Source: a phage. Taken from it: a stretch of 64,000 bases of DNA. How positions within the stretch are numbered: the stretch's first letter is position 1; each line of letters begins with the position of its first letter. Made by a program: the position numbers and the translations under genes. Shown here piece by piece: positions 21,677 through 32,110 of the stretch. The stretch lies in NCBI GenBank assembly GCA_020619395.1, contig GCA_020619395.1_4860.1; one strand, 5' to 3'. The notes beneath the pieces are model-generated. The model did no database searches. It was not told the DNA's origin and worked only from the letters and a program-made list of their open reading frames with translations.

Positions 21677-22537
21677 CTACGGTTTATAATCAACTTCGTT
21701 GATCTTGCCGCAAGCCGGACAAGCAATGTTCATTGTCTGCGAAGTATAGCGATGGGTTCTCGGTACTGTAGCGACATGGTTGCGGTTACAGCCGGAACAC
21801 GTCCAGCCAACCACTGGTGCCTTCGATTGTTTCTGGGCAGGTGTGTCTTCTTTTAACAATGCGACTACCGCGTGAAATTTACGAAGCTCTGCGTTAACAT
21901 GCGCTTCCCAGTCGGCGTCCAAACGCGCCGTGAACCAACGTTGAATCTTCTGGCCAAGTCCGTCTTGATTTTCTTCTTCATGGGACATCACAAACTTGAG
22001 ATTTGCACGACCCCATTGCACGACGTTCTCTACTTTAATCCCGTCTACGGTGTCGCTGATTGGCGTATAGTTAAAAGTTGGATAGGTGAGATAACAAGCT
22101 TCAGCTGTTGCAAAGACAGTATTGCCTTCAAACAGTGCCATGGCCTCATCGCCCTTAGCATCCTTCTGTGCGGCTTCCAATCGTGGGCAATGGAAACCTT
22201 CAAGTTGCTGGATTTTGGTCGTTAGCGCATTGATACCCTGTAGCACGGCAATGCGCTTTTTGCTGTCTGTGATCGTCGCCATTACCTTGCACAACGCGCG
22301 CGAGATAGCGCTATACATTGACGTTTTGCGGTTTTCATCGAGGAAACGCTCTTGCTGCTCCAGGTCGTAAGAAGACAGGCCGTAGCTCTGCCCTTCGACC
22401 AACACGACATAAGTACGACGTTTGTCGCGGTCCAGCTGGACAATGGCCGCATCGGTTAACGGATCGCTAGCCAATACTTCGTGGTTGGGAGGTAGGGGGA
22501 AATCCGAACTTTTGATAAAATCAGTAATGCTGTACAT
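21677..22537 (-). CDS. hypothetical protein with C-terminal zinc-ribbon-like Cys pairs
   Basis: AAGGAC ribosome-binding site; C-terminus contains CSGC...(19 aa)...CPAC. Confidence 0.5.
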   Translation of the reverse strand: MYSITDFIKSSDFPLPPNHEVLASDPLTDAAIVQLDRDKRRTYVVLVEGQSYGLSSYDLEQQERFLDENRKTSMYSAISRALCKVMATITDSKKRIAVLQGINALTTKIQQLEGFHCPRLEAAQKDAKGDEAMALFEGNTVFATAEACYLTYPTFNYTPISDTVDGIKVENVVQWGRANLKFVMSHEEENQDGLGQKIQRWFTARLDADWEAHVNAELRKFHAVVALLKEDTPAQKQSKAPVVGWTCSGCNRNHVATVPRTHRYTSQTMNIACPACGKINEVDYKP

Positions 22538-23204: not shown

Positions 23205-23386
23205 TAGTAAATCTCCTGCTGCATTGGAAACACATTACCTGTCGGTGAGACGAGTAAGACTTGCGCGGTAACGTGAACAATTTCTTCTTCGTCCTGATGA
23301 CGAACACCGTTAGTGAGATTATCCCACTCACGTTTAACACGAGGGTGAGATAAGAACTCGGCAAACTGCGTATCAGAAAAGTCCAT
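23204..23386 (-). CDS. hypothetical small protein (60 aa)
   Basis: ATG at 23386 overlaps the stop of the upstream small ORF in a TAATG arrangement; track ORF uses a GTG at 23404. Confidence 0.4.
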   Translation of the reverse strand: MDFSDTQFAEFLSHPRVKREWDNLTNGVRHQDEEEIVHVTAQVLLVSPTGNVFPMQQEIY

Positions 23387-23529
23387 TAGCCGCGACCTGT
23401 ACACATGGCAACAGAGTTACCGTTATCGATGCACTTGTTGTAATCTTGAGTTACAGTGATAGACAGTACCGCGAAAGCAACAACAGCAACGATTGCGAAG
23501 ATGGCACGTTTATGGTTACGAGTTAACAT
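23386..23529 (-). CDS. small single-pass membrane peptide (47 aa)
   Basis: Not in ORF track. MLTRNHKRAIFAIVAVVAFAVLSITVTQDYNKCIDNGNSVAMCTGRG; AAGGAG ribosome-binding site 7 nt upstream; first gene after promoter-like motif A. Confidence 0.4.
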   Translation of the reverse strand: MLTRNHKRAIFAIVAVVAFAVLSITVTQDYNKCIDNGNSVAMCTGRG

Positions 23530-23580
23530 GGTAATACTCCTTTAGCTTAATAGTCGATTGAGTTGATAGATTGTCTTCTA

Positions 23581-23606
23581 TCACCTAGGTAATATATATC
23601 TGAAAT
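23581..23606 (-). promoter_or_regulatory. conserved AT-rich promoter-like motif (copy A)
   Basis: tcacctaggtaatatatatctgaaat; identical 26-mer also at 32085-32110; about 52 nt upstream of ATG 23529. Confidence 0.55.
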
Positions 23607-23636
23607 TATTTTTATTCAGAGTACACCCTCTATAAC

Positions 23637-23727
23637 GCTCTCAAACGCGTTTTGAGAGCTTTTATCACTTTAGAGGGTCGTTCTACCGTTAGAGTGGCTT
23701 TAGAAGGTTGTGTGTGCGTTTAGAGGG
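23637..23727. repeat. intergenic array: 9-bp inverted repeat plus four helically phased direct repeats TTAGAG(G/A/T)G
   Basis: Palindrome gctctcaaa-cgcgt-tttgagagc (23637-23659); direct copies at 23669, 23689, 23699, 23719 (spacing 20/10/20 bp). Confidence 0.5.
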
Positions 23728-23741
23728 CTAAAATAAAGAGA

Positions 23742-23764
23742 CCTGGTCTCACAAGGAGACCAGG
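23742..23764 (-). terminator. rho-independent terminator
   Basis: cctggtctc-acaag-gagaccagg hairpin after the stop of 23772..24569, T-rich tail on minus strand. Confidence 0.6.
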
Positions 23765-23771
23765 CACACTT

Positions 23772-24569
23772 TTACATCAAATCCAGGCTCTGAGAGACCG
23801 CAACTTCCGGTTCACTGATGCCGCTGGTCACTGACAATGTAAAGCGACGATCGTTAATCACTTCAACTGCCTCGCTCGCACGCAGTGAATACTTATCGGC
23901 GATTGGCAGTACACTGTTATCGTTCTGTGGCGGCAGAATCTGTGCCGGGAACGGAATGTACGAGTTGAAAGTGATATACGGACCGACTTGCATCATCGGG
24001 AACACTTCGTTCACGTTATTCGACATCCCTTCATCCGAAGAGATAACGGAGTGACGCAGACAGGCACGCAAGCCAACGGTGTACTCCGGATCGCGCGATT
24101 CGCCGATCAGTGCGAAACGGAACACGTTGAAATCGTAGTCGTCTGCAGCGAAGTGTTCTGGCAGGATACGCTGTACGTATTCAGGGTAAGTGGTCACGTC
24201 ACCCGGAATAACATTCACGGCGAGTTTCTGTGCCAGGAAATACGCATTCGCGAAACCGTACTGCCCCGCCAGCGCAGCTGATATCGGTGCAGTGGTTACG
24301 CAGTGCAGGAACAAGTGATAACCCAGCCCGCCTTTATCTTCGATTGCCAGGTCCTTCTTACTCTGCACACCGTCAGCAGTATAAATAACTGCCACTGTTT
24401 TATCCAACGTCGATGCCATGACAAAATCCAACTGCACCTCACCGCTTTGCGGCAGTACCTTAACCAGGCGATCCCAGAGCTTGGTCGGTTTGGTGAAGTT
24501 AGCGGCTTCGTACGCATCAATGTCGAGAACAGTTTGGCCGGTCATGCGAAAGGTGTGAATCGCTTTCAT
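23772..24569 (-). CDS. hypothetical protein (265 aa)
   Basis: ORF, last gene of an operon before the terminator. Confidence 0.55.
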   Translation of the reverse strand: MKAIHTFRMTGQTVLDIDAYEAANFTKPTKLWDRLVKVLPQSGEVQLDFVMASTLDKTVAVIYTADGVQSKKDLAIEDKGGLGYHLFLHCVTTAPISAALAGQYGFANAYFLAQKLAVNVIPGDVTTYPEYVQRILPEHFAADDYDFNVFRFALIGESRDPEYTVGLRACLRHSVISSDEGMSNNVNEVFPMMQVGPYITFNSYIPFPAQILPPQNDNSVLPIADKYSLRASEAVEVINDRRFTLSVTSGISEPEVAVSQSLDLM

Positions 24570-32042: not shown

Positions 32043-32084
32043 ATTCCTTAAGTGATGGTCGGTTAAAAGATTACCAATGCAATC

Positions 32085-32110
32085 TCACCTAGGTAATATA
32101 TATCTGAAAT
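32085..32110 (-). promoter_or_regulatory. conserved AT-rich promoter-like motif (copy B)
   Basis: tcacctaggtaatatatatctgaaat, identical to copy A; between terminator 32144-32167 and ATG 32042. Confidence 0.55.

Follow-up and report, generated by a model that had tools for sequence, protein, structure and literature searches.

The window analyzed here is a 64,000-nucleotide stretch of phage DNA (GenBank assembly GCA_020619395.1, contig GCA_020619395.1_4860.1), and the element in question is a short triple-repeat module within one of its intergenic gaps. The 2 kb around this gap exhibit 98–99% identity to the Salmonella phage SPN3US and to ~30 of its close relatives (genus Seoulvirus, 240-kb jumbo phages), with the minus strand of the window corresponding to the plus strand of SPN3US. 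The gap comprises 242 bp (23530–23771) between the homologues of gp65 and gp66, which bears out an earlier note that had described a non-coding stretch between two genes. That note had further reported four helically phased direct copies of TTAGAG(G/A/T)G and a perfect 9-bp inverted repeat, located downstream of a promoter-like motif and upstream of a terminator, and had taken them for a multi-site protein-binding locus. The order is in fact reversed: since all flanking genes are encoded on the minus strand, the array lies 3′ of the terminator and 5′ of the promoter in the direction of transcription. Following the coding strand, the gp65 stop codon is succeeded by the terminator and by four copies of the form CCYTCTAAA, after which come the palindrome and TATAGAGGG. 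Past an AT-rich stretch, the 26-mer ATTTCAGATATATATTACCTAGGTGA (motif A) then precedes a leader, the Shine-Dalgarno sequence, and the start of gp66 (Table 1).

What is conserved in this gap is a ~40-bp module of three head-to-tail units on the minus strand, as opposed to the array of four copies, the palindrome, or the phasing. In the window, it reads AAAAGCTCTCAAAACGCGTTTGAGAGCGTTATAGAGGG (23663–23626), that is AAAA-GCTCTCAAAA-C-GCGTTTGAGA-GCGTTATAGAGGG, and its consensus is AAAA-CGCTTAGAA-n-GCGTTACAGA-GCGTTTTAGAGG with units of 10–11 bp. Thirty-five copies of the module align free of gaps. In an alignment of 26 sequences, the positions G24 C25 G26, A31 G32, and G34 C35 G36 T37 are invariant—meaning that GCGT is repeated at a spacing of 10 bp—and unit 2 tolerates AC, TT, AT, or TG at fixed positions. 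The triple-repeat family across elements is defined in the present analysis; the window copy shares the invariant GCG..AG.GCGT and the location in non-coding DNA of an Enterobacterales mobile element. A sequence-only model (R1) that was built without the window yields a single match in it (23622–23667, 36.2 bits, E ~1e-9) and two matches in the whole SPN3US genome. A weight matrix derived solely from the 18 non-jumbo copies scores 44.1 bits at 23625–23664, compared with 8.1 bits for the next site of the window and 14.8 bits for the best of 20 shuffles.

The features reported earlier can be related to this module. The palindrome corresponds to its units 1 and 2, with unit 1 drifted into complementarity with unit 2. 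The four direct copies are extra unit-3-like copies in opposite orientation, found in this lineage only and filling the 70 bp between module and terminator. Herein, the proposed relationship of the palindrome arms to the direct repeats is supported, and the repeats are also related to one another. A fifth copy of opposite orientation, TATAGAGGG (23626–23634, minus strand), had been missed.

Table 1. Features of the gp65–gp66 gap and its flanking genes, in coordinates of the window
Feature	Position	Strand	Remarks
Triple-repeat module	23622–23667	−	A-tract and three units; sole match in the 64-kb window to profiles from other elements
Module A-tract	23663–23660	−	
Module unit 1, GCTCTCAAAA	23659–23650	−	most diverged unit
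Module unit 2, GCGTTTGAGA	23648–23639	−	
Module unit 3, GCGTTATAGAGGG	23638–23626	−	contains the inverted copy missed in the earlier note
Perfect 9-bp palindrome, GCTCTCAAA (23637–23645) / TTTGAGAGC (23651–23659)	23637–23659	.	5-nt loop; TTTTAT comes next on the plus strand, resembling a terminator; not conserved as a hairpin
Array copy TTTAGAGGG, first of the earlier note	23669–23677	+	invariant in six close relatives
Array copy GTTAGAGTG, second of the earlier note	23688–23696	+	weakest copy; four variable columns among six close relatives
Array copy TTTAGAAGG, third of the earlier note	23699–23707	+	outside the TTAGAG[GAT]G consensus; invariant in six close relatives
Array copy GCGTTTAGAGGGC, fourth of the earlier note	23717–23729	+	first after the terminator on the coding strand; invariant in six close relatives
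Intrinsic-terminator-like hairpin, GCCTGGTCTCCTTGTGAGACCAGGT then CTCTTTATTT	23731–23765	−	potentially bidirectional
Motif A, 26-mer ATTTCAGATATATATTACCTAGGTGA	23581–23606	−	AT-rich early-promoter motif
Early-transcript 5′ leader	23538–23559	−	box AATCGACTATTA 23548–23559; Shine-Dalgarno AAGGAG 23538–23543
gp65 homologue, upstream gene	23772–24569	−	265 aa, PHROG 8163; stop codon marks the gap start on the coding strand
gp66 homologue, downstream gene	23386–23529	−	47 aa, hydrophobic, PHROG 8574

The regions 3′ of the gp65 homologues were compared among 15 relatives from five genera. The module is kept at this place in Seoulvirus, Erskinevirus, Machinavirus, and Wellingtonvirus, as well as in one contig from IMG/VR. 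Outside Seoulvirus, gp65 retains 47–58% identity and the remaining intergenic DNA is unalignable; the module is the one block that survives in all of them, on the coding strand (e.g., GCGCTTAGAGA-GCGTCTGAGG-GCGTTATAGAGGG in ChrisDB). In Derbicusvirus (Phobos, CR5, and EarlPhillipIV), it is absent and the terminator abuts the early promoter. To judge from these comparisons, strong purifying selection acts on the module across genera. Between module and promoter core (TATATATTAC), 29 nt intervene in the window and 25–37 nt in the relatives. In four relatives (SPAsTU, pEa_SNUABM_29, pSal-SNUABM-04, and pEa_SNUABM_11), module and promoter are split by a stand-alone Nlig-Ia gene (PF22745) of 400 bp. 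An operator of the adjacent promoter is rejected on account of this variable distance and of the interposed gene. The adjoining gene is likewise rejected as the cognate regulator, as the Nlig-Ia domain protein is not DNA-binding and the neighbors in the window are devoid of domains.

The Nlig-Ia gene itself encodes ~134 aa that correspond to the NAD+-binding N-terminal domain of DNA ligase, and its start codon lies ~10 nt past the module. It is found at 1597–2001 of locus L004, 2149–2544 of L014, 2134–2538 of L019, and 2108–2503 of L016, equivalent to a position between 23622 and 23606 of the window. Its occurrence is patchy in three genera, and where present, it is always located exactly between module and early promoter.

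SPN3US contains a second module outside the window, which reads CGCTTTTAGAGAG-CGTTACAGAG-CGTTTTAGAGGG and is located between the convergent genes gp158 and gp159. It lies 10 nt from a bidirectional terminator and points straight into it. This locus is syntenic in phiEaH2, where the module is recognizable beside the same terminator hairpin. The module is strongly conserved, and each jumbo genome carries it at two syntenic places. At 240158–240197 (minus strand) of SPN3US, there is a possible third module of degenerate sequence with 16.1 bits, against 14.8 bits for the best shuffle. Together with a GTGCGTTTTAGAGGGGG word at ~240060 (L011), this candidate is part of a long non-coding stretch at the end of the deposited SPN3US genome.

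Taken as isolated words, the repeats are not enriched. The 8-mer of the array has four matches in the window compared with 4.0 expected, the 9-mer with one mismatch has 8 compared with 9.3, and the degenerate unit pattern occurs 138 times in the 240-kb SPN3US genome, where 148 are expected. Clusters of at least three units within 60 bp, however, occur at two loci of the whole SPN3US genome as opposed to 0.23 per shuffled genome, and the clustering of units is non-random. The earlier note had proposed to discard the locus if its 8-mer occurred at background frequency with no positional conservation. Formally, the frequency of the word speaks for doing so, yet the element is regarded as real because its positional conservation is strong.

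The module is not confined to jumbo phages. A BLAST search with the second SPN3US locus gives short, strong matches in unrelated phages. In the T5-like phage examined, a near-consensus module (ACGCGTTAGAATGCGTTACAGAGCGTTTTAGAGC) resides in the left terminal repeat's non-coding repeat region, and the three-unit module is also carried by the Felix O1-like phage FO1a and the rV5-like Cronobacter phage EspYZU15. The 42-nt consensus is found in 517 GenBank phage records (304 of them at ≥80% coverage), which are mostly T5-like and further include 137–149-kb myophages, Pectobacterium phage Arno18, and 356–366-kb Erwinia jumbo phages. It also matches ~1,490 plasmids, mostly of 30–50 kb, and 1,236 of 5,426 complete Escherichia coli genomes, in which 1,458 of the places are plasmid-borne and 841 chromosomal. 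From IMG/VR, a pattern scan adds 36 loci, ~30 of which have all three units in non-coding DNA. All inspected copies of the module are unannotated or intergenic. The two chromosomal copies from E. coli that were inspected belong to genomic islands, where long stretches of non-coding DNA surround them, and the only Enterobacterales match inspected from the species-wide scan described below, in Rahnella, lies in an apparent early-control region of a prophage. The module hence seems to belong to mobile elements, largely those of Enterobacterales hosts, and not to core chromosomes.

In the one plasmid that was examined (p504237_36, IncX-type with a pir replicon), two module copies are placed between the pir iterons and a Phd/RelE operon. 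These copies are ~400 bp from the iterons (L027 2800–2870 and 2997–3230) and just beyond a stretch (CGCTTCCTCGCTCAC...GGCTGCGGCGAGCGGT) that we take to resemble the sequence 3′ of the pMB1/ColE1 origin. For IncX plasmids, a replicon-associated oriT has been placed in this general area (PMC3402527). In the terminal repeats of T5-like phages (L024, L043, and L044), a near-perfect LexA-box-like palindrome (TACTGTATAAATATACAGTA) follows within ~20–30 nt of the module. In the left terminal repeat of saus176N (L024 1497–1700), this palindrome is succeeded by 9-mers within one mismatch of a DnaA box, and L043 contains two module-plus-palindrome pairs that are ~190 bp apart. For T5 itself, a catalogue of the left terminal repeat lists palindromes, repeats, and DnaA boxes of the injection-stop-signal region (Davison, bioRxiv 10.1101/866236). 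The corresponding region of the T5-like terminal repeat examined holds a module copy that is followed by DnaA-box-like 9-mers, and no description of the three-unit module was found in the part of the catalogue that was consulted. The idea of a T5 nick site is rejected, as the major-nick consensus R/GCGCRGG (PMC3517423) does not fit the module. A 5.5-kb element (L033, IMG/VR 3300025605_000263) exhibits dense iteron-like arrays of CGACTATC(A/G)A(A/G)CGACTAT on both sides of the module, which suggests an origin-like region in a small element. A megablast search of locus L035 against GenBank phages gives no match, and this element may be plasmid-like.

In the window, the module lies between the terminator of the gp65 gene and motif A. 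The terminator is formed by a 10-bp stem with six G–C pairs (23765–23741), followed by the T-run CTCTTTATTT, and its hairpin is part of the centroid fold; with A-rich and T-rich flanks on both sides, it is potentially bidirectional. The gp65 homologue belongs to a PHROG family without assigned function, and the gp66 homologue heads a run of small early genes. From gp65 to gp70, the homologues have no Pfam match, and their PHROG families are all without assigned function. The gp70 homologue (21677–22537, minus strand, 286 aa, PHROG 10180) contains a C-terminal zinc-ribbon-like CxxC...CxxC motif (GWTCSGCNRNH...NIACPACGKINE).

Motif A recurs in the window as an identical 26-mer at 32085–32110, where a terminator lies directly before it and no array is present. 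Its core TATATATTAC has six copies in SPN3US, each located 5′ of an operon, with a leader, a Shine-Dalgarno sequence, and small genes coming next. In phiKZ-type and RNA-polymerase-encoding jumbo phages, early promoters are described as a conserved AT-rich motif of ~10 nt centered near −10, which in phiKZ-type phages is attributed to the virion RNA polymerase (PMC7598289). The core within the 26-mer is likewise AT-rich, conserved, ~10 nt long, and repeated before presumed early operons; motif A thus matches the published description and is predicted to serve the gp66 operon as its early (virion RNA polymerase) promoter. In SPFM2 (L002), the counterpart of 23575–23605 contains this core in a 27-bp tandem duplication (AGATATATATTACCTAGGTGATAGAAG) that results in two tandem promoters. 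In SPFM16 (L003), the counterpart of 23530–23610 is occupied by a divergent promoter and leader (TTTATAGATAGATATTATCTTAGGGAGAGAG...) with another downstream gene, and the replaced segment starts ~20 nt past the conserved module. The leaders driven by the early-promoter motif share a box AATCGAC(T/C)ATTA that is placed 8–12 nt 5′ of the Shine-Dalgarno sequence. It is found in the window at 23548–23559 and, in a weaker form, at 32053–32064 (both minus strand), and in SPN3US near 94.29, 114.04, and 223.33 kb. The box also occurs in Erwinia relatives (TTCGACCATTA and GCCGACTATCA) and before some promoterless internal genes; a possible role is that of a signal for translation or for RNA processing in early mRNAs.

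We take the site in the window as the SPN3US-lineage version of a conserved cis module. Of the readings considered, the most likely is that it would act as a docking array on duplex DNA for a sequence-specific protein, which is plausible although somewhat short of probable. A docking array on double-stranded DNA is proposed because the three units are arranged head to tail at a spacing of one helical turn and contain the invariant GCGT and AG positions. About three protomers might thereby bind side by side on one face of the helix, one-turn-spaced as the units are. The partner could, more weakly, be a host (Enterobacterales) factor or machine instead of a phage protein because the mobile elements that carry the module share no obvious protein. 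Binding may create a boundary or roadblock between transcription units, assist as an accessory site where regulation or replication is centered, or mark incoming DNA. The lineage-specific extra copies would then be further sites of lower affinity in opposite orientation. Protein binding, the partner, and the consequence of binding are what we infer here, whereas the existence of the module, its conservation, and its spread over unrelated mobile elements are observed. Of the protein-binding locus proposed earlier, what holds is a cis element, part of which is evidently under strong purifying selection across genera, whereas the conserved entity is neither array nor palindrome.

Among known systems, the operator arrays of the OmpR/PhoB family (e.g., at ompF and ompC) are similar in that they also consist of three contiguous 10–11-bp units of the same orientation with one-turn spacing. 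Some module units contain GTTACA or GTTTTA, which we take to be similar to OmpR half-sites. However, no consensus known to us fits GCGTTnnAGAG, and the scan of one genome per species reveals no comparable sites.

Several points weigh against the docking-array reading. A search for the two-unit core in one genome per species (185,579 bacterial species, 596 Gb) gave 44 matches, scattered over unrelated phyla, where ~70 are expected by chance according to our own calculation. A host transcription factor as the partner is weakened because comparable chromosomal sites are missing. SPN3US-like phages belong to the nucleus-forming group, which makes access of host proteins to their replicating DNA doubtful. 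To our knowledge, the unit matches no DNA-binding consensus: we know of no convincing match to Fis, IHF, CRP, LexA, DnaA, Ter, dif/cer, MetJ, PhoP, CpxR, ArcA, RcsB, SlyA, or H-NS nucleation sites, to sigma-70, sigma-E, or sigma-54 promoters, to the repeat handle of type I-F CRISPR, or to type I and III restriction sites. No common positional logic emerges from the loci either. Across 21 non-jumbo loci, a downstream sigma-70-like sense promoter occurs at six loci compared with four to five in controls, and an upstream terminator at three compared with one to four; neither is enriched. A terminator–module–promoter order as the general layout is rejected, as this uniform scan stays at the level of the controls. 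Among six close relatives, variable columns are distributed as 7 of 63 in units and 7 of 39 in spacers (p = 0.38; p = 0.09 without copy 3), so that the units show no significant excess of conservation over the spacers. Lastly, the phage group of SPN3US transcribes with its own polymerases (PMC7598289).

A wider version of the same idea holds the module to be a hitherto undescribed, near-universal cis signal of enterobacterial mobile DNA, common to nucleus-forming jumbo phages, T5-like, Felix O1-like, and rV5-like phages, IncX plasmids, and genomic islands, that recruits, titrates, or evades one host machine. Such a machine might be an immune sensor or a factor involved in priming, topology, or DNA entry. 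It would explain both the retention in mobile elements and the absence from core chromosomes; we consider it speculative and rather unlikely.

The locus proposed in the earlier note can be read as phage-specific, with a phage-encoded protein acting on four phased TTAGAGNG copies and the palindrome, be it in an operator, an iteron-like origin, or a partition site. Seven related units within ~100 bp are in line with such a locus, and four TTAGAG-like words indeed start on the plus strand at 23670 (TTAGAGGG), 23689 (TTAGAGTG), 23700 (TTAGAAGG), and 23720 (TTAGAGGG). The third of them, TTAGAAGG, does not fit TTAGAG(G/A/T)G, which leaves three matches of this consensus. The offsets are 0, 19, 30, and 50 instead of 0, 20, 30, and 50, with roughly helical spacings of 19, 11, and 20 bp. 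The phasing is only approximate, with copies 2 to 4 in register and copy 1 displaced by ~2 bp; by our own estimate, the chance of three spacings lying ≤2.5 bp from a multiple of 10.5 is near 0.1. Among the six close relatives, copies 1, 2, and 4 as numbered along the coding strand are invariant, as is module unit 3, and copy 3 has four variable columns. The best extra copy (23717–23729) equals the consensus of module unit 3, and its plus-strand layout of GCGTTTAGAGGGC, TAAAATAAAG, and hairpin parallels the order unit 3-TAAATAAAG-hairpin at 137.5 kb of SPN3US. The perfect 9-bp inverted repeat is present as reported; with 61 short inverted pairs of a 9-nt seed in the window, such a hairpin is unexceptional in 64 kb. 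Uncompensated changes disrupt its left arm in MET_P1_082_240 and its right arm in SPFM2 and SPFM16. Conservation in related phages, which the earlier note had suggested checking, applies to the three-unit module in four genera, whereas the four direct copies and the perfect palindrome are confined to the SPN3US lineage (Seoulvirus).

Origin-like features accompany the module elsewhere, namely the pir iterons of the IncX-type plasmid, the CGACTATC arrays of L033, and the DnaA boxes of T5-like phages. Like iterons (R6K pi and lambda O) and centromere arrays (parC of R1), the module consists of tandem repeats in non-coding DNA, and in the IncX-type plasmid it lies ~400 bp from the pir iterons. 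The lambda O iterons contain CCCTCAAAACG, which resembles CCCTCTAAAACG. The module differs from these systems in having only three units of 10–11 bp, no cognate initiator or Par genes nearby in the phage, and no skew signal, and in recurring with the same sequence in replicons with unrelated initiators. Iteron-type origins combine several 17–22-bp direct repeats with an AT-rich unwinding element and an adjacent initiator gene; here, the units measure 9–13 bp, the neighbors contain no Pfam domains, and the GC skew tracks gene orientation with no inflection at 65 kb of SPN3US. No Par or regulator gene is adjacent either, gp65 to gp70 having no Pfam matches, and a distant partition partner elsewhere in the genome was not searched for. 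Moreover, the word is repeated at only one further locus of the genome, the distance to the promoter varies up to the interposition of a gene in four relatives, and the same module is found in plasmids and unrelated phages. A phage-specific locus is, therefore, an unlikely explanation.

A further possibility is that the module is a recombination linker or mobile regulatory cassette that spreads by mediating the exchange of cassettes between co-infecting elements. This would agree with near-identical sequences of 35–40 bp in unrelated mobile elements and not in core chromosomes, with the patchy Nlig-Ia gene exactly between module and early promoter in three genera, and with the replaced downstream segment of SPFM16 that begins just past the module. 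The PeSL cassettes of T4-type phages, which have been proposed as mediators of the exchange of neighboring cassettes between co-infecting elements, are comparable in being short, conserved, and non-coding, and in lying at the boundaries of early cassettes beside presence/absence polymorphisms (here Nlig-Ia). However, a PeSL is composed of a promoter and a hairpin within one phage family, whereas the module is neither and crosses phage families and plasmids. Moreover, a length of 35–40 bp is small for homologous exchange to be efficient, flanking sequences are unrelated from family to family with no transferred block longer than the module in sight, and the three-unit structure with invariant positions and variation at fixed positions (unit 2) has the look of a recognition code instead of mere sequence identity. 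We regard a linker as improbable to about the same degree as the phage-specific locus.

At the level of RNA, the C-rich, G-poor blocks of the CCCUCUAAA type that follow just past the terminator on the coding strand might form a Rho-loading or boxA-like tract. A bias of C over G and regularly spaced YC blocks are indeed seen at 23727–23650 (minus strand). The region also folds better than shuffles, owing only to the terminator and the palindrome. A structured RNA or hairpin is rejected, as the excess folding energy stems from these two elements and the palindrome is not conserved, its arms changing without compensation. For the window region, Rfam gives no relevant match at E values up to 10, and four other loci have none either. 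The reverse complement of module unit 2, CGCUCUGUAAC, resembles boxA, CGCUCUUUAAC; written as CGCTCTGTAAC, it is one base from the boxA core. Compared with nut sites, the module has the wrong orientation at most loci and no boxB-like hairpin. Where gene direction is clear (jumbo, T5-like, and rV5-like phages and one island), the boxA-like strand is antisense to the flanking genes. In jumbo phages, the module occurs in both orientations relative to the adjacent terminator and is usually located 3′ of it. Coupling to Nus or Rho is unexpected in a group that is transcribed by phage-owned polymerases (PMC7598289), and an RNA-level signal is accordingly held to be quite improbable.

The module might also be a promoter for another polymerase, either the non-virion RNA polymerase or host sigma-70, that drives gp66 or the Nlig-Ia gene of the relatives. 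Three of the latter (SPAsTU, pEa_SNUABM_29, and pSal-SNUABM-04) have no early-promoter motif before Nlig-Ia, with the module as the sole conserved upstream sequence, and in L050, a gene starts 23 nt past the module. With only two copies per 240-kb genome, the module is not a general promoter; no acceptable −35/−10 pair was found in 23300–24000, the second-locus module points into a terminator 10 nt away, and an architecture of tandem units is unlike that of promoters. We consider such a promoter very improbable. Least probable of all is the lack of any function, that is, decaying duplications or the leader remnant of a lost gene: although the extra copies are lineage-specific with copy 3 degenerating, and loss of Nlig-Ia could have orphaned its upstream region, this view is disfavored and seems hard to reconcile with a module that is kept in four genera amid diverged intergenic DNA, has a second syntenic locus, and recurs in unrelated elements.

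A full-text literature search with four sub-strings of the module and with IncX and T5 descriptions retrieved no mention of it. Tandem-repeat cis elements are familiar as such, and the observation in the window is ordinary in itself, yet it leads to a conserved element; this family and its spread over plasmids, islands, and at least five unrelated phage groups appear to be undescribed. Should the module be a docking site, elements with wholly different replication, transcription, and packaging systems would have one short DNA word in common, among them a phage group whose DNA is believed to be shielded from host proteins. The identity of the partner could then reveal a host dependency, or a host sensor, that plasmids and phages in Enterobacterales have in common. 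It could also provide a functional annotation for hundreds of blank intergenic regions, including the terminal repeat of T5 and a region near the origin of IncX-type plasmids. If the module is only a recombination linker, it would still document sequence-level exchange between plasmids and virulent phages. In SPN3US-type phages, two conserved control points in non-coding DNA, at gp65/66 and gp158/159, are marked by it and are genetically testable.

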